A stretch of DNA of 64,000 nucleotides. It comes from Patescibacteria group bacterium. GTDB lineage: Bacteria > Patescibacteriota > Patescibacteriia > PEXW01. The translations under genes were made by a program, and so were the position numbers. Position 1 is the first letter of the stretch. Every line of letters begins with the position of its first letter. The stretch lies in NCBI GenBank assembly GCA_041665345.1, contig JBAYJA010000004.1, forward strand, positions 48,122-112,121. Reading direction: 5' to 3'. The notes below the pieces were generated by a model. It was not told where the DNA came from. It worked only from the letters and a program-made list of their open reading frames with translations, and made no database searches. Below are positions 27,748-53,325 of this stretch, piece after piece.

Positions 27748-27821
27748 GCGGGCATCGTATAATGGTAATACCTCAGCTTTCCAAGCTGATGCCGGGGGTT
27801 CGATTCCCCCTGCCCGCTCCA
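27748..27821 (+). tRNA. tRNA-Gly (anticodon UCC), CCA encoded
   Basis: GCGGGCATCGTATAATGGTAATACCTCAGCTTTCCAAGCTGATGCCGGGGGTTCGATTCCCCCTGCCCGCTCCA folds as a cloverleaf with a 7-bp acceptor stem, anticodon loop TTTCCAA (anticodon TCC) and a T-arm GGGGG-TTCGATT-CCCCC. Confidence 0.8.
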
Positions 27822-44592: not shown

Positions 44593-45972
44593 CTACTCTG
44601 CCTTGGCTTCAGCCGCAGGCGCTGGTTCTTCTGGTTTGGCCTCAGCTGGTGCTTCCACTTCTGGAGCAGCAGGTTCGGCCGGCGTTTCTGCGGTTGCCTC
44701 AGGGGCTGCGTCAGTCGGCGCTGCCACGGCGTCAGCAGCTGGGCGAGGTTCACCACCTTCTCCTACAATATCAATGCGCCACCCAGAGAGTTTGGCAGCT
44801 AACCGGACGTTTTGTCCAGCCTTGCCAATAGCCAGAGAAAGTTGATCCTCTTTGACCTCCACCTTGGCAGTGTGGCTGGCTTCGTCCAGGGAAATGGAAA
44901 TGACCTTGGCGGGTGAGAGCGCGTTGCCGATGAATGCCACGGGATCGTCGGACCATTCAATAATATCCACCTTCTCACCGCCGAGTTCGTTAATGACGGT
45001 TTGCACACGGCTGCCCCGCTGACCCACGCACGAACCAATGGGATCAATGTTCGGCTGGGTGCTGGCCACCGCAATTTTGGTGCGGTGCCCGGCTTCACGC
45101 GCCACGGCTTTAATGTCCACGGTGCCATTCTGAATTTCCGGCACTTCCACGGAGAAGAGCTTCTTCACCATTTCCGGGTGCGCGCGGGACACCACAATTT
45201 CTGGACCCTTCGTCGTCGCGTTCACGGACACAATGTACACCTTCAACCGGCTACCAGCGCGGTACTGTTCGGTTGGCAACTGCTCACTAGGGGGCATAAT
45301 GCCCATGGTGTGCCCAATGTCGAAAATCACCAAGCGACCTTCCTGGCGCTGGACGGTGGCGTTAATCAATTCACCTTCACGATCTTTGAATTCTTTGAAC
45401 ACCATGTCGCGCTCTGCTTCGCGCAGCTGCTGGATGATCACTTGCTTGGCAGTTTGCGCAGCCATGCGGCCGTAGGAGGCAGGTGGGAAAAGTTCGGTGC
45501 GAATCACATCACCCACCACCGAACCGGGCTTCAACTTTTCGGCATCCGAGACGGTGATCTCCGTCTTTGGGTCAAAACGTTCAAAGGCGGATTCTGCTGC
45601 TTCTTCCGTTGCTACCTCGGGTGCAGCTACAGGTGCTTCCACAGGCGCATCTTCTGGCCGGACGACAATTTCCCCAGCCGCAACTTTCGCTTGGCGTTCG
45701 GCTTCCTCTGCTTCCAACCGAGCTTTGCGCTCGGCGTCGTAGGCTTCGGTTTGGGCTTTCTTGGCATCTTCCACCACCGTTTTCACGTCAAAGACCCGGC
45801 TGGATCCGTCTTCAAGACTAAAATCCACCTTCACGTTTTGGTCTTTCTCACCAAAATCTTTGCGGTAGGCAACTGCTAGCGCAGCTTCCACCGTGTGCAC
45901 AATCGCCTCCATGGGAATGTGCTTCTCATCGGCGATCTGCTGCATTGCGGCTACAATTGGGCTTTCGGCCAT
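44593..45972 (-). CDS. nusA: Transcription termination/antitermination factor NusA with acidic Ala/Pro/Glu-rich C-terminal tail
   Basis: N-terminal domain, S1 and KH regions (GQNVRLAAKLSGWRIDI). Roughly 55-aa low-complexity acidic tail. Confidence 0.8.
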   Translation of the reverse strand: MAESPIVAAMQQIADEKHIPMEAIVHTVEAALAVAYRKDFGEKDQNVKVDFSLEDGSSRVFDVKTVVEDAKKAQTEAYDAERKARLEAEEAERQAKVAAGEIVVRPEDAPVEAPVAAPEVATEEAAESAFERFDPKTEITVSDAEKLKPGSVVGDVIRTELFPPASYGRMAAQTAKQVIIQQLREAERDMVFKEFKDREGELINATVQRQEGRLVIFDIGHTMGIMPPSEQLPTEQYRAGSRLKVYIVSVNATTKGPEIVVSRAHPEMVKKLFSVEVPEIQNGTVDIKAVAREAGHRTKIAVASTQPNIDPIGSCVGQRGSRVQTVINELGGEKVDIIEWSDDPVAFIGNALSPAKVISISLDEASHTAKVEVKEDQLSLAIGKAGQNVRLAAKLSGWRIDIVGEGGEPRPAADAVAAPTDAAPEATAETPAEPAAPEVEAPAEAKPEEPAPAAEAKAE

Positions 45973-46077
45973 GGGCGTACGTATGTAAAAAAAGAAACAG
46001 TCTCCATATGGACTGCTTGGCTAGAGTATACAGGGAACCTGGGGAATGTCAAGGTCAGTAAATAAGGAGGGAGTGTT

Positions 46078-47038
46078 TTATGTACGGACATTTGGCGGGT
46101 TGGAACGAAGATACTTCCCTAGAAATTCATTTGGCGTTACGCCCTGTAGTCCGCAGTGCTCCAGGTTGTTGTACGTAGTATTCCACTGCACTAGCTTCCT
46201 GTGCAACTCCGCAGCGGAGGCAAAGGTGTTGCGATCATAGAAAGTCTCCTGGTCGGAGCGGTGGGATCGTTCCACAGTACCGTTCTGCGCTGGCTTCCCT
46301 GGATCAATGAGGTAGTGGGCGATGTCGTGCACCGCACAGTACTGGTCGAGGCCATGGACGGTCTGCACGGTCAGGTCGCTCCGTCGGTTCGTTCCCACAT
46401 ACCGGTTGGTGAAGATGCTCCCGTTATCGGTCTTCACGGCCTGGATGCGGGTGCGGGAAGTGCCGCCGCACCTCCTGCAAGAATCGTATGGCGTGCCAGG
46501 TGCTCTCGTGCTCGTAGATGGCGAGGTACCGCCAGCGTGAGGCACAGTCGATAGCGGTGTACTGGTAGTATTTCAGCCCTGCCACTGCGCCAGGAACGTG
46601 CTTCACGTCTATTTCGACCAGTTCTCCTGGCTGCCGCTCGGCTTTGAGGTATTTGTACTTTATGCGCTTCGTTCGGTACCGCCGAACTAACCCCTCAACT
46701 TTGAGGATCTTGCCAACAGTCCGTTCATGCAGACAGACACCCTCTTTCGCTAACCGCCACGCCAGTTTCAGGGCGCAGAGTTTCGTGGCCTTGCGGAGGG
46801 CGATGACCTGTTCTTTGGTGTGCATGGGTGTCTCCTGGGGGTGGGTTTTCGGCCTGGTGGACTTTGGCACCAGTCCGGTGGCACCGTGCTGGCGATAGAG
46901 GGTCACCCATCGCTCGAGAGTGCGTTGACCGTACGGGAAGACCTTGGCCACATCACAGAGCCGCACCTGCTTCTCGATGATTGGCAGAACCCAACGCAAC
47001 CGTTCTTCTTGGATTGTAGTGACCATATGGGTAGACAT
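46078..47038 (-). pseudogene. IS481-family DDE transposase, split by a -1 frameshift into two overlapping ORFs (46424..47038 and 46078..46545)
   Basis: The N-terminal ORF has an HTH plus the start of the rve domain (...YQYTAIDCASRWRYLAIYEHESTW...FLQEVRRHFP). The C-terminal ORF continues ...RIQAVKTDNGSIFTNRYVG...HYLIDPGKPAQNGTVERSHRS. The two overlap by about 120 nt in different frames. Confidence 0.55.
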
Positions 47039-47075
47039 TTCCCCAGTGTATGGGAAACCGCCATATGTCTGTACA
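46081..47075 (-). mobile_element. IS481-family insertion sequence (about 995 bp) with imperfect 21-bp terminal inverted repeats
   Basis: Left inverted repeat tgtacggacatttggcgggtt (46081-46101). Right inverted repeat aaaccgccatatgtctgtaca (47055-47075). 18 of 21 positions match in inverted orientation. The transposase stop abuts the left repeat. Confidence 0.55.
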
Positions 47076-47153
47076 CATTACCGGAGGGCATTGACAAAAT
47101 GCATATAATAACTTATACTATAAGTAGTAAGTTAATAATTAATCCAAAATTTT

Positions 47154-47645
47154 ATGGGCATAGAATCAGGAAGACCCTCGGGAGTAGAAATGGGTCTAAC
47201 TCCAAAAGTAGACTCCATTGACGATGACTTAGATCTTGTTTCCGAAAAAAAAGAAGTGAAGGATGTCGTCCCGGGTGATTGGATGCAAGTGGATAGCATG
47301 GTAGTTACTAATGACATTTCGCTTGGGAAAAAAGATTCGATTGTTGAGCGGAGTAATGACACGAATGATTCTGGAAAGTACGAAAGCAATAATGGCGTAC
47401 TTACCTATGTTACCCCTAAGGGGGAAAAATTTGTTGGCCCACGAACAGATGCACAGCTTCAGGCATTAGAGGATGCAGGGTATGAGCGACAAGGCATGTT
47501 TGTCCCCCTGTCCCATGGTGAGATGCCAATGGATCCGGAGCAACGTAAATTGTGGAAAGACATGTTAGCACGAGGCAGTGGACAAGTTGAAAAAGAGAAT
47601 CAAGAGGCTCGAGAAAAAGAATATCGGAAATCAGCAGAGAAATAA
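47154..47645 (+). CDS. Hypothetical protein (AT-rich island)
   Basis: 163-aa ORF in a low-GC segment next to the IS. Acidic/Lys-rich; no family recognised. Confidence 0.3.
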   Translation: MGIESGRPSGVEMGLTPKVDSIDDDLDLVSEKKEVKDVVPGDWMQVDSMVVTNDISLGKKDSIVERSNDTNDSGKYESNNGVLTYVTPKGEKFVGPRTDAQLQALEDAGYERQGMFVPLSHGEMPMDPEQRKLWKDMLARGSGQVEKENQEAREKEYRKSAEK

Positions 47646-47917
47646 TATCTATACAATCCAATAAACCCCTTCACATATCTTCTATGTGAAGGGGTTGTTG
47701 TATAGATTTATAAAAACTCTCCCCGCCCACTTGGATTTCATTAGAAAATATAGCGATTACTCCTGGTCGCCACCAATACCCCCATGCTGGCATAGTATCG
47801 AAAATGGACAATACTAGAGACGTTCTTATTCTTTAATTCGCAAAATAACGAGTTAGCTAGAATGACTAAAAATCTTAATCCAAATTTAAGTATGGCAACC
47901 CAAATGCTGAAAAAATA

Positions 47918-48298
47918 TTGTTGTTCGTGATTGTGTTAGTAATAGTTCTTGCTGCTACGTTACTTACCTTCTATCAAATGGAATCAAAAGGGAATTCCAA
48001 TGTAGTTGTAGGTAGCGCCAATACATCATTAGTTAATAATAGTAATTCATTTCCGATCTCAAACATCCAAAAGAATATTAACGCATCTCTTAATAATCTT
48101 GATATAAGTCTGAATATTTTTGTATTGAAGACTTGTTTAGATTCAGCTCAAAGTGATTTTGATGATCGTTACAGAAATACCTGTAAACAGGAAGGAATGA
48201 ACTATGTTTGTGATTTTTATGCACCTGTTTTTGATAAAAAATTTCAAGATGGAAAAACTAAATGTTTTGATGACTTTGGAACGTCAGTGTCTAAATAG
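47918..48298 (+). CDS. Hypothetical membrane-anchored protein (AT-rich island)
   Basis: TTG start with N-terminal hydrophobic helix LFVIVLVIVLAATLL. Asn/Ser-rich. Confidence 0.25.
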   Translation: MLFVIVLVIVLAATLLTFYQMESKGNSNVVVGSANTSLVNNSNSFPISNIQKNINASLNNLDISLNIFVLKTCLDSAQSDFDDRYRNTCKQEGMNYVCDFYAPVFDKKFQDGKTKCFDDFGTSVSK

Positions 48299-48447
48299 TT
48301 GTTGCATAACATCCTTTTTGTGACTCTCGTGTGCAGGGGGATGCCTCGTGATGTCGCGAGTTTGGTTTTTACTTGAAAAATCCTTTGTCCGTTGATAGTA
48401 TTATCTTATCTCGTCAGTCAATTCATCTATATCAATCATCCACAAGT

Positions 48448-48822
48448 ATGCGAGAAAATACCTCAAACCACGTTGAGCAAGCATATACTGAAGCAACTAC
48501 CCAACGTATTGAGCCAACGAAATTCCTCACAAAACATGAGGAAGCAATTACCACAGCTGATGCTGAAAGAGCAGACGGTAGTGAATGTGGCTTTACGGTT
48601 GTGATGCGGATATTAGCCTCCGAAACCCAGTCTTTTCCCAGGGAGCGGATGATGAAAGAGATTGAAGAAGAAATTCGGGAAAATCAAAAGTTGAACGACA
48701 CCGTAGATGAAGCTGAAGTGGAAAAGCATCTTCAACGTTACAATGTTGTCGTAGAGAATCTACTACAATCAGGAGTTCTGGTTGAAGAAGAAGGAATATT
48801 AAAACTTGAAAGAACTGTGTAG
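48448..48822 (+). CDS. Hypothetical protein (AT-rich island)
   Basis: ATG at 48448 (MRENTSNHVEQ...). The track start is TTG. Glu-rich C-terminus. Confidence 0.25.
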   Translation: MRENTSNHVEQAYTEATTQRIEPTKFLTKHEEAITTADAERADGSECGFTVVMRILASETQSFPRERMMKEIEEEIRENQKLNDTVDEAEVEKHLQRYNVVVENLLQSGVLVEEEGILKLERTV

Positions 48823-48999
48823 GATTTTGCAGAAGCCTTATTATTGTTAGACTCTTTACTAGGTCGTAAAGTAGTAACCCTGTAAGAATCAAAAATTTTT
48901 GTAAACCTCTTACTCTTGCGTGAGGGTACTTTAGCGTAAGTTTTTTTTCATTCTCTCCATCTTGACCAGATGGGTAGACTCGCCTACCCTCTATAGCAT

Positions 49000-49542
49000 A
49001 TGCCAAATCTCGTGCCCGTCGCCACCACGACCAGACACACGTTCCACACCAAGCACCGGCAAGAATTCATTACCATCACCCAGCAGGTGGAGGCGGCAAT
49101 TGCTGCATCCGGCGTGCAGATGGGGACAGTGACCATTCAGAGCCTCCACACCACGGCCAGCATTTGGGTAAACGAAGATGAAAAAAATTTGATTGGCCCA
49201 AACCAGAAGCTGGGCTACACCAGTGACTTGTCCCGGGTGTTGGATCGGTTTGCCGATCCAGAAGAAGACTACGGGCACAATGACGTGCGCGATGCCCGGA
49301 ATCCCAAAGGCAAGCGAGACACCCACCTGTGCGATGCTGACTCCTGCGGCATTGTGCATGAGTGCATCAACGGCCACGCGCATGCTCAGGCCATGATCCT
49401 CCCCTGCTCCGTCACCATGATTGTGGAAAATGGAAAGTTGGTAAAAGGTCGGTGGCAGCAGATCATGCTCATTGAGCTGGACCACGACCGCGAACGCCAA
49501 GTAACGATTCTTGTGCAGGGCATCGGGGAGAAAAAAGCGTAA
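49000..49542 (+). CDS. YjbQ/UPF0047 family protein (secondary thiamine-phosphate synthase-like)
   Basis: ...GTVTIQSLHTTASIWVNEDE...YGHNDVRD...GHAHAQAMILPCSVTMIVENGKLVKGRWQQIMLIELD matches the YjbQ fold signature. Confidence 0.6.
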   Translation: MPNLVPVATTTRHTFHTKHRQEFITITQQVEAAIAASGVQMGTVTIQSLHTTASIWVNEDEKNLIGPNQKLGYTSDLSRVLDRFADPEEDYGHNDVRDARNPKGKRDTHLCDADSCGIVHECINGHAHAQAMILPCSVTMIVENGKLVKGRWQQIMLIELDHDRERQVTILVQGIGEKKA

Positions 49543-49596
49543 CCAAGAATATACCAATACCAGAGCAGCCTCTCCAGGCTGCGATGCTTTTCCGAT

Positions 49597-49630
49597 TAAA
49601 AAAACCCGCTCCATGGTGGGCGGGTTAAAA
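49597..49630 (-). terminator. Rho-independent terminator (minus-strand sense) after 49647..50114
   Basis: aacccgc-tccatggtg-ggcgggtt with the A-run on plus equal to a U-run on the minus transcript. Confidence 0.45.
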
Positions 49631-49646
49631 ATTCAAATAGCAGGGT

Positions 49647-50114
49647 TCAATCGAGCCAATAGTAGGTGATTGCGCCGTCTTCATGCAAATCATCAACTTC
49701 ATTGAGAGCTTTGTCGATTTGCATTTTCACGTCTTCTCCTGTCGGTTCGGTTTTGAAAAAAAGCAGTAGGTGCACCATGAAGCATTCTTTTTCCGACGGA
49801 TGTGGGACAACTTTTATGGTGTTCCCGGTACTGTCTCTCGTAAACGGATCGAAGATTGCGTGCAGGAGCAACGTAGCGTTCTCAGAAAACGTAGGAGACA
49901 GTTCATCGAAAGGGAGTAAGACATATCGTTCATACGTTTGCCGGTACAGCCAGCCTTGGTAATAAAGTATGAGCTGACCAGTATGCTGGTGATGTGACAG
50001 AGTGGCCCAGTTCATGCACAGACCTAAATCGTCAAGTGACCGTACAGCATTCCCTGGACTGTCACACACTAGTGATTTAAACTCCGGCTTCCCTTGTAAT
50101 GTAACAAATGACAT
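49647..50114 (-). CDS. Hypothetical protein
   Basis: Strong ribosome-binding site AAGGAGG 6 nt upstream of ATG 50114. 155 aa. Confidence 0.45.
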   Translation of the reverse strand: MSFVTLQGKPEFKSLVCDSPGNAVRSLDDLGLCMNWATLSHHQHTGQLILYYQGWLYRQTYERYVLLPFDELSPTFSENATLLLHAIFDPFTRDSTGNTIKVVPHPSEKECFMVHLLLFFKTEPTGEDVKMQIDKALNEVDDLHEDGAITYYWLD

Positions 50115-50198
50115 TGTTCCTCCTTCTTAGTTTTTGCTTTTTCTTTACACATCATCCTATCCTTCGGACGTTTGCTCGTCAAGCGCTATACTACCTCC

Positions 50199-50480
50199 AT
50201 GACCCTTGACCCCACCGGCGCTACGCTTGGACTGGGCTCAGCAGACTTGAAGGTAGTTGTCCTCTCCACGGTCAGCTTTGTGTTGGGCTTGCTGACACTC
50301 ATTCAGACCATTGTGGTGCTCTACAGTGGTTTCATGTGGCTCACCGCCCGGGGTGACGATGAACGGAAGCACGAAGCAAAAATGACCCTCTTTCGCTCAG
50401 TGGTCGGCACCTTCATTGTTGGGGTTGCCTGGGGAATTGTCCTGTTCTTGTTCCGGTTGGTGGAGCGAGCAACGACATAG
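50199..50480 (+). CDS. Small two-TM membrane protein (VirB2/TrbC pilin-like topology; inference)
   Basis: MTLDPTGATLGLGSADLKVVVLSTVSFVLGLLTLIQTIVVLYSGFMWLTARGDD...TFIVGVAWGIVLFLF. The track start is TTG. Confidence 0.35.
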   Translation: MTLDPTGATLGLGSADLKVVVLSTVSFVLGLLTLIQTIVVLYSGFMWLTARGDDERKHEAKMTLFRSVVGTFIVGVAWGIVLFLFRLVERATT

Positions 50481-50505
50481 CCGGATCTTCCTCCCTCTCC
50501 TCTCT

Positions 50506-50623
50506 GTCATTCTGAGTCTTCGACCTGCCCGCCGTACTTCGTCGCGAAGGCAGGCGGGAGAATCTCCGAACAATTTTTACAAACCATGGAGATTCTTCAT
50601 CCCGAAGCGGGATTCAGAATGAC
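50506..50623. repeat. MITE-like palindromic element with terminal inverted repeats GTCATTCTGA / TCAGAATGAC (relative of 6518..6646)
   Basis: Ends gtcattctgag (50506-50516) and tcagaatgac (50614-50623). Internal mini-palindromes cttcgtcgcgaag and atcccgaagcgggat. Confidence 0.4.
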
Positions 50624-50676
50624 AAAGAAGAGACCTCTACAGCTCTACGGCTTTATAGCTCTACGGCTCATCCCCC

Positions 50677-51036
50677 CTACTCCCCCACGTTTTCCAAATG
50701 CACTACCTGCTCCTTGCCGGTCGTGTTCGTAATGGCAATGACGTCCAGTTGGTACTCACCTGTCCAGCCTCGTTGTTCCACAATCCACTCCATGGATTGC
50801 TCCAGGCGTTCCAGCTTTGCCGCGTTGATTGCTGCTTCCGGTGGGCCAAAGCCCGTGGAGGTACGGTACTTCACTTCCACACCAACCAGCACCTTTGCTT
50901 TGGTGCAGAGAATGTCCACTTCCCCATAGGGTGTGCGGACATTTTTTTCAATCTTGGTGTACTTCTTTTTCTGCAATAAAGCCACGGCCAGTTGCTCACC
51001 GTACTTCCCGCGTTCGTGTGCCAGTACGGCACTCAT
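50677..51036 (-). CDS. YraN/UPF0102 family endonuclease-like protein
   Basis: ERGKYGEQLAVALLQKKKYTKIEKNVRTPYGEVDILCTKAKVLVGVEVKYR is the UPF0102 signature. ATG 51036 has AAGGAG upstream; the track's 5' extension was rejected. Confidence 0.55.
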   Translation of the reverse strand: MSAVLAHERGKYGEQLAVALLQKKKYTKIEKNVRTPYGEVDILCTKAKVLVGVEVKYRTSTGFGPPEAAINAAKLERLEQSMEWIVEQRGWTGEYQLDVIAITNTTGKEQVVHLENVGE

Positions 51037-51607: not shown

Positions 51608-52444
51608 TTAGCGTTTGGACGAACGGCGTTTGCGAGAAACTTTTTTGGGAGTGACGCGGCGCGCCTTTGTGATACGAGGTTTTCCTTTTGCGAGCTTCCG
51701 CTTTGGAAGAGCTTTCCGTGGCTTGGGTTTCGCAATGACTTTCTTCTTCACAACTTTTCGTTTTACCCGTGCTCCAGTCTTCTTCTTTGGCTTCACTTTC
51801 GTCTTCTGCTTTTTCACTTTCAATCCTAACCGCGCCTTCACGGGAGCAAAAGATTTTCGGTGCTCTGGTGTTGGTCCGTGCAACGTTAATAACTGCTGGT
51901 GCAGTGCTGTGCCGTACCCTTTATGAATGTGAAACTGGAAAAGTGGGTACAACCGGTGCAGTTCTGAACTCATGATCCGATCGCGTACGACCTTCGCCAC
52001 AATCGATGCCGCGCCAATGGTTCGCTCCAAAGCATCGCCATCAATAATGCTCACCACCGGAATGTTGGTGAAAGTAAGTGGGAAGGCATCCACCAGCAAC
52101 GCATCCGGTTTGATGTACAACTTTGCCGTTGCACGTTCCAGTGCTTGGCGGTTGGCTTCGGTTATCCCTTCCTTATCTATGACCGCCGCTGGGACAATGT
52201 GCACCGCCCAGGCAATCGCCTTTTTCGTGATCGCCACAAAAAGCTCCTCACGCTGCTTTGGGGAGAGTAGTTTAGAGTCCGTAACCCCTGCTGGAACATC
52301 ATTCGTATCCAAAATCACGGCAGCTGCCACTAATGGGCCAGCCCAGCTGCCTTTGCCAACTTCATCCACGCCGGCAATGTGCCGGTGACCGGCCTTGCGC
52401 AAGCGGTGTTCGTGCTCATTTGTTGGTTTCTTCCATTTTGCCAT
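51608..52444 (-). CDS. rnhB: Ribonuclease HII with about 70-aa lysine-rich C-terminal tail
   Basis: IAGVDEVGKGSWAGPLVAAAVIL...DSK...ASIVAKV catalytic core. Tail KVKKQKTKVKPKKKTGARVKRKVVKKKVIAKPKPRK.... ATG 52444 chosen; the track start is a 5' extension. Confidence 0.65.
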   Translation of the reverse strand: MAKWKKPTNEHEHRLRKAGHRHIAGVDEVGKGSWAGPLVAAAVILDTNDVPAGVTDSKLLSPKQREELFVAITKKAIAWAVHIVPAAVIDKEGITEANRQALERATAKLYIKPDALLVDAFPLTFTNIPVVSIIDGDALERTIGAASIVAKVVRDRIMSSELHRLYPLFQFHIHKGYGTALHQQLLTLHGPTPEHRKSFAPVKARLGLKVKKQKTKVKPKKKTGARVKRKVVKKKVIAKPKPRKALPKRKLAKGKPRITKARRVTPKKVSRKRRSSKR

Positions 52445-53325
52445 ACGCAGAGTATAGCGCATTCCCCAGCTTTTTTCTCCTTTCCTTATTCTCTGCAATA
52501 ATCCCTTACTTCAAAAAAATAACCAATTAAAAAAGGGCGCGAGCGTCCAAATATCATAGATAATAAGGGGACTGCGCCCTTTAGAATTCTCAAAAGTAGA
52601 TATTTGCCGCTACGTTTACCGTTCCTCCGTAGAGAAGCCGTCAACGTAGCAGCAACTACCATAAACCTTATGAGAATGTATATTCTTCATTCCCACTTTC
52701 TTGAAGAATGTTTTTAACGCCAACCGCTCTTGTGGTTATACTCCCTGCCCGAGAGCTCAGAAGTTAACCTTTTAGTTCCAGTGGCTTTTTATAACCTCCT
52801 GGAGTTTTATTTTACAGACAGGCGTGTGGGACGCCTATGACGAGCAGTAGGACAGGGAGGTCACAACGCGTTTTGGGTGACATTGACTGCCCGACTTCTC
52901 GGTCTTTAGTAGCAAGAGTAGTTTTTTGCGTTGATTTAAAGAGCGTTCTTTATCTAACAGCGGAAGTATAGCACTGTTTTGACGTAATGTCAAATATCTG
53001 GTTTGGCTAAGATTAGCGGAAATTACGAATAGGGTTACGTCCCGCCACTGAGGCGGGATCCCGCCTTCCTCTTCTCAGAAGCAAGAAGTGGCGGGAAATT
53101 ACGAAAAGAATGCTACGAAACTACGAATGTACGAATTGGGAGGGAGAATGCAGTTTTTTCGGAGTGCGGGCAGCTCTCGTAGAGTCTGAGCGACCCCGAG
53201 TCTGCTCGAGGGGGAGTCGAAGACTACCCGCTGCTCGACCGGGGAGGTTTTGGAGGGGGAAAGAATTCGGAGGATTTAGATTTGATTTGCATAAAGCCTT
53301 CCTCATGTAATACAGACGTTGCACT

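Follow-up and report, generated by a model that had tools for sequence, protein, structure and literature searches.

What is a broken insertion sequence (IS) doing beside an island of AT-rich DNA, directly upstream of nusA, in a genome of only about 1.08 Mb? The question is raised by a 64,000-nucleotide stretch of contig JBAYJA010000004.1 from a Patescibacteria group bacterium (hereafter the window; positions are counted from its first letter), whose host is placed by its NusA relatives in Candidatus Kerfeldbacteria (Patescibacteria, or candidate phyla radiation, CPR). An earlier note on the window had described a degenerate IS481-family element, had found the adjoining AT-rich block consistent with foreign DNA mobilized by the IS, and had suggested that the IS may have displaced the nusA promoter. 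The locus as flagged is ordinary, a freshly inactivated IS beside a small islet of orphan genes in a variable spacer. Once the boundaries were corrected the observation was confirmed, and both the IS481-family pseudogene and the foreign orphan-gene islet stand. The single feature that deserves follow-up is a promoter-phased target preference of the clade to which the IS belongs.

The insertion sequence and the lesion in its transposase gene

The IS had been bounded at 46081..47075 by imperfect inverted repeats. Repeats are present there and match at 18 of 21 positions, and TGTACGGACATTTGGCGG (46081-46098, plus strand) and TGTACAGACATATGGCGG (47058-47075, minus strand) were the sole two matches in the window, with 0.1 expected, but these repeats are subterminal. 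When other metagenome copies were compared, conservation ran 7 nt past them on each side (GGTAATG/TGTACAG... and ...CCGTACA/TAAAACA), beyond which similarity among copies broke off abruptly. The true ends therefore lie at 46074 and 47082 (Table 1), and in the orientation of the transposase they read 5'-GGTAATGTGTACAGACATATGGCGG ... CCGCCAAATGTCCGTACATAAAACA-3'. The tetranucleotide GGAG directly abuts both revised ends as a target-site duplication, and duplications of the same length recur in 10 other insertions of this IS clade. They flank the copies at L087, L090, L094, L101 and L121, and for multi-copy elements the matching tetranucleotides TAGG, CTGG, GAGT, TTAG and CAAT were found on different contigs; since duplications that seemed to be missing reappear across contigs, assemblers have evidently joined the flanks of different copies. 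The duplications of the clade are 4 bp long (CTCC, CGAT, GACG, GTTA, AAAA, TAGG, CTGG, GAGT, TAAT, CAAT and TTAG).

Assignment to the IS481 family, as first proposed, was upheld by the repaired transposase, which passes the NCBIfam model NF033577 (IS481) over residues 13-304 by a small margin (227.4 bits, cut-off 224). The next best NCBIfam model, IS3 (NF033516), reached 73 bits against a cut-off of 160, and IS21 and others failed widely. The length of about 1 kb, the inverted repeats, the short duplication and the helix-turn-helix (HTH) domains preceding an rve-type DDE core all agree with the family. Homologues were sought in a collection of 5.8 billion proteins, which contained thousands of relatives encoded by a single open reading frame (ORF) of 302-349 amino acids; the closest intact ones share 84% identity and are exactly 319 residues long, and no split was present among the best 120 listed. 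Within the window, tblastn with an intact relative found no other fragment of the element, so the IS is single copy in the 64 kb. No IS ends were found in 80 nusA loci of relatives, and the IS-end pattern had no match in viral contigs.

The transposase gene occupies two minus-strand ORFs. The upstream one (46424..47038) matches the Pfam families HTH_28 and HTH_32 and the first two-thirds of rve, and the downstream one (46078..46545) matches the remainder of rve together with rve_3. By tblastn with an intact relative, frame -1 (47038-46451) supplies residues 1-196, frame -2 (46449-46081) supplies residues 197-319, and base 46450 is skipped. A DNA alignment to the intact copy L085 contained one gap in 985 columns, at which the window reads CACCCGC and L085 reads CA-CCGC; the plus strand of the window has GGG at 46449-46451. 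The single-base frame change reported earlier near this junction is thus a 1-nt insertion, and intact relatives and the position of the indel, for both of which the earlier note had proposed to look, have been found. Removal of the extra base restored a 319-amino-acid ORF that keeps every invariant column of a 10-sequence alignment with nine intact relatives, among them the catalytic residues D144, D204 and E256. The lesion separates the first catalytic Asp from the second, so that each ORF specifies only part of the active site.

The earlier note had left open whether the frame change marks a pseudogene or an assembly indel. Three assemblies hold the locus: ENA ERZ27249449 contig k141_1145919 (1.08 Mb), Logan SRR6484324 and JGI 3300037810. 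Across the IS and the island all three share 100% identity, and the departures of the JGI contig from the ENA and Logan sequences, 7 single-nucleotide polymorphisms (SNPs), 10 Ns and a 3-nt gap, all lie within nusA. The JGI contig is therefore a SNP variant with the same lesion, and at least two strain variants carry the extra base. A sequencing or assembly indel masking a transposase that is truly intact and active would fit the fact that one deletion yields a perfect 319-residue ORF with all invariant residues, as well as the position of the extra base in a short CCC homopolymer; yet the same base emerged from different pipelines (MEGAHIT-style ENA, Logan and JGI), one of them representing the distinct SNP variant, and Illumina errors do not typically arise in runs of only 3 nt. 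We regard such an error as quite unlikely. Still less credible, and in our judgement extremely unlikely, is the idea that the split into two ORFs serves programmed frameshifting, as a control on transposase synthesis in the manner of the IS3 family. That family has a related rve-type DDE core and uses such frameshifting, the placing of the HTH domains in the first of two ORFs bears a superficial likeness to it, and the N-terminal ORF alone would yield an HTH-only, regulator-like protein. However, IS3 elements rely on a programmed -1 shift between orfA and orfB, whereas a +1 shift would be needed here, at CCG CAC CCG CAT; the IS3 model fell far short of its cut-off; and the best 120 homologues listed are all single ORFs. 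With no slippery motif or heptamer at the site and no relative sharing the split, programmed frameshifting is improbable. The pseudogene is thus the better of the two original alternatives, and the extra base probably reflects a genuine and recent pseudogenization.

Promoter-like hexamers at the insertion sites

Outward from the transposase-start end of the IS, the window reads 7 nt, ATTGACA, a 17-nt spacer and TATACT. The generality of this arrangement was assessed at 24 independent insertion sites, assembled from metagenome loci (L087-L130) and from transposases present on several contigs. A TTGACA hexamer with at least 5 of 6 matches occupied nt 9-14 outward in 19 of the 24 start-end flanks (binomial p ~2e-40), 14 of the 19 being perfect, and two further flanks read TTGATT; no other hexamer offset exceeded 1 of 21. 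In 14 of 23 flanks TAnnnT followed after a spacer of 16-18 nt, the background being 5.5% (p ~1e-12). The hexamer was found in just 2 of 22 stop-end flanks (L115/L116 and L127), where it again stands 8 nt from the IS end and precedes TATAAT or TATAAC, and both are insertions that lack the hexamer at the start end. Taking both ends together, a -35-like hexamer with 5 or more matches of 6 stands precisely 8 nt from one end of the IS in 21 of the 24 insertions, and the orientation bias is about 10:1.

Outward-facing -35 hexamers in the ends of ISs are well known (IS1, IS2, IS30 and IS257), and the fixed distance from the end would be expected if TTGACA were carried by the IS and were no feature of the target. 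Copies with identical transposases argue otherwise: within the groups L106/L107/L110 and L113/L114/L115, the 7-nt gap, the spacer and the outer flank are unrelated between copies. The 4-bp duplication, moreover, sits between the IS end and the hexamer, and in two insertions (L116 and L127) the hexamer lies on the opposite side at the same spacing. The unrelated flanks and the position of the duplication identify the hexamer as target DNA, and an IS-borne hexamer is very unlikely.

The simplest reading of these flanks is that the clade picks sites phased on sigma70-type promoters. Whether it constitutes a promoter-targeting transposon in the full sense we consider evenly balanced; such an element would insert 8 bp upstream of a TTGACA -35 hexamer, generate a 4-bp duplication and point its transposase gene away from the promoter about 90% of the time. 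Targeting could proceed by direct recognition of TTGACA by the transposase or by capture of promoter-bound RNA polymerase. The IS ends carry TGTACA or TGTACG at nt 8-13, which resembles TTGACA only loosely. Genes starting downstream of the targeted promoters were suggestive in about half of the loci, by an ORF-based test too crude to serve as evidence. A hybrid transposase promoter, formed by TTGTCA (the reverse complement of the hexamer region) together with the IS end, was considered and rejected, there being no acceptable -10 at 16-18 nt. A -35-phased insertion rule for IS481-like or other bacterial ISs was not found described in the full-text literature, the coverage of which was incomplete, and we know of no bacterial IS that is phased on the sigma70 -35 hexamer.

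The nusA promoter, the AT-rich block and the yraN-nusA spacer

The start of nusA is 101 bp from the revised IS end and 108 bp from the end first assigned, in keeping with the earlier estimate of about 105 bp. Displacement of the nusA promoter by the IS was not borne out. A predicted promoter and a leader hairpin are intact, with the -35 hexamer at the 5' edge of the promoter 21 bp from the IS end, and both have aligned counterparts in the DNA before nusA in five relatives from Kerfeldbacteria, the NusA proteins of which are 74-80% identical. The leader stem shows a compensatory change across relatives (CAGTC/GACTG to CAGCC/GGCTG), and a hairpin with a T-run is also present upstream of nusA in L012 and L013. 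The conserved leader looks like a transcription attenuator and is reminiscent of NusA autoregulation in Bacillus. No effect of the IS on nusA is evident. The transposase gene and nusA are co-directional, so read-through into nusA would be possible, but the predicted native promoter is intact. NusA itself (44593-45972, minus strand) has an N-terminal domain split by an insertion that is acidic and rich in Ala and Glu, notably at 45778-45835, and an Ala/Pro/Glu-rich C-terminal tail; 7 of the 7 SNPs that distinguish the JGI strain variant from the window fall in this insertion.

On the other side of the IS, the visibly AT-rich character attributed earlier to 47100..48990 was substantiated. Positions 47076..48999 have a GC content of 38.3%, whereas other 1.9-kb segments average 51.2% (standard deviation 2.9%), making this segment the lowest of the 64 kb (z = -4.5), and it contains the two lowest 1-kb bins of the window. 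Composition by codon position is likewise not uniform: GC at third codon positions (GC3) is 0.38, 0.23 and 0.34 in the three block genes isl1, isl2 and isl3 and 0.54-0.70 in neighbouring genes. Four stop-free runs of at least 120 codons were found in the block, where 0.12 were expected; among 500 shuffles that preserved dinucleotides, none yielded as many as three. A promoter-like site lies 5' of every ORF, and a terminator-like site or hairpin lies 3'. The absence of recognizable families held up as well: scans of the block ORFs and of orf155 farther downstream used Pfam (E up to 10), NCBIfam, PHROGs and PADLOC, and the three block ORFs had no match in the first three and nothing significant in the last; orf155 gave no significant match either. 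An Rfam scan of 45500-51000 with E up to 1 returned chance-level matches only. The GC and GC3 contrast, the orphan genes and the absence of the block from relatives bear out its earlier description as a foreign island, most likely acquired horizontally from a low-GC donor.

The protein collection contained only self matches for isl1 and isl2 and one distant, full-length homologue of isl3. In isl1 the codon positions rank GC1 > GC3 > GC2, and a single-sequence structure model of its product was poor (predicted local distance difference test, pLDDT, 51). The gene sits behind a promoter-like sequence of the type selected by the IS. The hairpin downstream of isl1 comprises about 25 bp with a 14-bp perfect core; having no U-run, it is not a canonical intrinsic terminator, and it is probably either a terminator of another kind or an element that stabilizes the transcript. 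That the block lacks GGAGG ribosome-binding sites is correct for the exact motif, but GGGAG at 47180-47184 lies 5 nt before the isl1 ATG at 47190, and the absence is uninformative here because nusA and yjbQ themselves have no Shine-Dalgarno sequence. The isl2 product is probably membrane-anchored or secreted, and a terminator-like site follows the gene at 48345-48370. A structure model predicts a winged helix for the isl3 product, whose best weak profile match, to JetA (E = 0.003, 14 bits), is not significant. The isl3 homologue (L086 1-753) lies in AT-rich DNA adjoining a GC-rich stretch on an unrelated 753-bp contig, which hints that the family travels on low-GC mobile DNA.

The proposed synteny comparison from nusA to yjbQ presupposed that these genes are ancestral neighbours, which they are not. 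The order in relatives is RNaseHII-methyltransferase-YraN-NusA-H+-PPase, with a yraN-nusA gap of 115-216 bp in 7 of 10 loci examined (L004, L005, L008, L009, L011 and L013 among them). Larger gaps occur in L007 (491 bp, with a pilin gene inside), L006 (885 bp), L010 (1.8 kb) and L012 (3.6 kb). In the five close relatives L004, L005 and L007-L009 the distance from yraN to nusA is 130-491 bp. Here the gap measures about 4.7 kb (45973-50676) and contains the pilin gene, orf155, yjbQ, the block and the IS, whose GC contents are 55, 46, 55, 38 and 57%, respectively. By this comparison yjbQ, orf155 and the pilin gene are inserted as well, and the whole spacer is a mosaic specific to this lineage. 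Insertion here seems to recur, as at a hotspot, since L006, L010 and L012 contain other inserts in the corresponding place. Gene calls differ at yjbQ: ENA and Logan have a 207-amino-acid antisense ORF (48991-49614, minus strand) in its place and JGI calls yjbQ, which has a clear UPF0047 match in Pfam; the difference is an annotation discrepancy. Beyond the spacer, RNase HII (51608-52498, minus strand) has a Lys/Arg-rich C-terminal tail of about 70 residues, and relatives align only to about residue 225.

Table 1. Positions of the features discussed, in window coordinates
Feature	Position	Strand	Details
Complete IS481-family insertion sequence	46074..47082	-	1009 bp; ends as in 20+ other copies, homology stops exactly there
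Target-site duplication GGAG, left copy	46070..46073	.	direct reading
Target-site duplication GGAG, right copy	47083..47086	.	direct reading
Subterminal inverted repeat, transposase-stop end	46081..46101	+	18/21 positions match partner
Subterminal inverted repeat, transposase-start end	47055..47075	-	18/21 positions match partner
Transposase residues 1-196	46451..47038	-	HTH_28/HTH_32, first catalytic Asp; frame -1; premature stop at 46424-46426
Frameshift site	46449..46451	-	extra C in CCC run; intact copy L085 has CC
Transposase residues 197-319	46078..46449	-	second Asp, Glu, rve_3; TAA stop 46078-46080 inside terminal TAAAACA
Predicted nusA promoter	46025..46052	-	TTGACA-N16-TATACT, TG directly 5' of -10 (TGTATACT, direct reading); kept in L004-L008
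nusA leader hairpin and U-run	45995..46018	-	terminator- or attenuator-like; conserved
Low-GC block with three orphan genes	47087..48990	.	38% GC
Predicted isl1 promoter	47091..47119	+	TTGACA-N17-TATACT; -35 hexamer starts 8 nt from IS end
isl1	47190..47645	+	151-amino-acid orphan; GGGAG 5 nt 5'; alternative ATG 47154 gives 163 amino acids
Long near-perfect hairpin 3' of isl1	47647..47707	+	-32.3 kcal/mol, z = -8.8, 0/200 shuffles as stable
isl2	47918..48298	+	orphan, 106-126 amino acids (start uncertain), hydrophobic N-terminal segment, four Cys, 31% GC
isl3	48448..48822	+	124 amino acids; structure model gives a winged helix
yjbQ (UPF0047)	49000..49542	+	Pfam; host-like GC; bounds island, absent from locus in relatives
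orf155	49647-50114		no family
VirB2/TrbC-like pilin gene	50172-50480		part of inserted stretch

Order of events and comparison with known systems

We consider it highly probable that accessory DNA entered the spacer, that an IS481-family element was inserted later, and that a 1-nt change then inactivated it. In this lineage the normally short yraN-nusA spacer would have gained about 4.7 kb of accessory DNA, consisting of a VirB2/TrbC-like pilin gene, orf155, yjbQ and the 1.9-kb AT-rich block with its three orphan genes, each transcribed separately, the block most likely arriving horizontally from a low-GC donor. Because the GGAG duplication brackets the IS alone, the insertion would have been a simple one into a site at which the block already adjoined the nusA promoter; the pre-insertion site would have read nusA promoter-N17-GGAG-GGC-ATTGACA-isl1. 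By ordinary transposition the 1009-bp element would have landed in the 25-bp gap that separates the back-to-back promoters of isl1 and nusA, upstream of both -35 hexamers (by 8 bp for isl1 and by 21 bp for nusA), and neither promoter would have been disrupted. The last step would have been the gain of the extra C between the codons for the first and second catalytic Asp, leaving a recently inactivated, non-autonomous copy of which neither ORF specifies a complete DDE triad.

Several observations weigh against this account. An empty-site allele was not found in metagenome contigs, and the order of events rests on the duplication, a 4-bp match of a kind that chance would give once in 256 cases. 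Shared read sets, or an origin in one aquifer population, may underlie the three assemblies. Blastn of the island against phage and plasmid collections gave no match, and no donor was found. Atypical composition and absence from L004-L009, as expected of a genomic island, were observed, whereas an integrase, a recombinase, a tRNA gene and convincing flanking direct repeats were not seen at the block, the only tRNA gene of the window being at 27748. The coding status of isl1 and isl2 depends on ORF length, codon-position GC and flanking signals. Some of these points would suit a native block, that is, DNA specific to the lineage that evolves fast or arose recently in an intergenic hotspot prone to variation: no donor or integration signature was found, two of the three genes have no homologue, and the spacer varies in L006, L010 and L012 too. 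A 13-point drop in GC, with GC3 of 0.23-0.38, would nevertheless be hard to generate in place on a background of 51-57% GC, and the sole isl3 homologue also resides in AT-rich DNA beside a GC-rich stretch. A native origin of the block is therefore unlikely.

The claim that the IS mobilized the block was not supported, and we judge it highly improbable that the IS brought the block, whether within a composite or one-ended transposition unit or through IS-mediated recombination. IS and block do lie side by side, no mobility genes are found within the block, and a repeat matching at 16 of 17 nt joins the IS interior, in the transposase start region (TGACCATATGGGTAGAC, 47020-47036), to the far, yjbQ-side edge of the block (TGACCAGATGGGTAGAC, 48963-48979) in direct orientation. 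As a relic of a second IS end this repeat was rejected; the match does not reach past 17 nt, its second copy overlaps TTGACC-N17-TACCCT, which resembles a promoter and lies just before yjbQ, and the repeat is probably due to chance. A composite transposon is further contradicted by the single IS copy, by the two end matches being the only ones in the 64 kb, and by the 4-bp duplication around the IS alone. The GC contrast starts exactly at the IS end, and other copies of the IS carry unrelated flanks.

The block resembles the small strain-specific islets of orphan genes in its atypical GC and GC3, its absence from close relatives and its genes without families. It differs from them in being only 1.9 kb long, in bearing no mobility signature and in lying inside a larger mosaic with genes of host-like GC.

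The IS resembles IS481 and IS1002 of Bordetella in its size of about 1 kb, its single long transposase ORF with an N-terminal HTH, rve core and rve_3, its imperfect terminal inverted repeats, an ORF that enters the terminal repeat, and a short target duplication. It represents a distant clade from CPR and groundwater metagenomes, as its score of 227 bits against the cut-off of 224 reflects. IS481 duplicates 6 bp and prefers NCTAGN targets, whereas the duplications here are 4 bp long and have no NCTAGN-like consensus. The clade is also set apart by its 8-nt phasing from the TTGACA hexamer, and the copy in the window by its frameshift.

Target-specific elements that avoid genes include yeast Ty3, which inserts at RNA polymerase III start sites, and Tf1 of S. 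pombe, which inserts at RNA polymerase II promoters; among bacterial elements, IS1397 and ISKpn1 target repetitive extragenic palindromic (REP) sequences and IS1630 targets terminators. If the promoter-phased preference is true, it would be the bacterial equivalent of the "safe-haven" targeting known from Ty3 and Tf1, and among bacterial DDE transposons it would be a novel way of selecting targets. Such a preference would let the IS persist in genomes of about 1 Mb that are dense in genes while leaving those genes intact, would help to explain the survival of ISs in streamlined CPR genomes, and would make the IS a natural marker from which sigma70-type promoters of uncultured Patescibacteria could be located by sequence alone. 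What the clade appears to share with Ty3, Tf1, IS1397/ISKpn1 and IS1630 is a constant, short interval between the insertion and a transcription signal, by which the genes of a compact genome are spared; what appears to distinguish it from all of them is that its insertions are phased on the sigma70 -35 hexamer.

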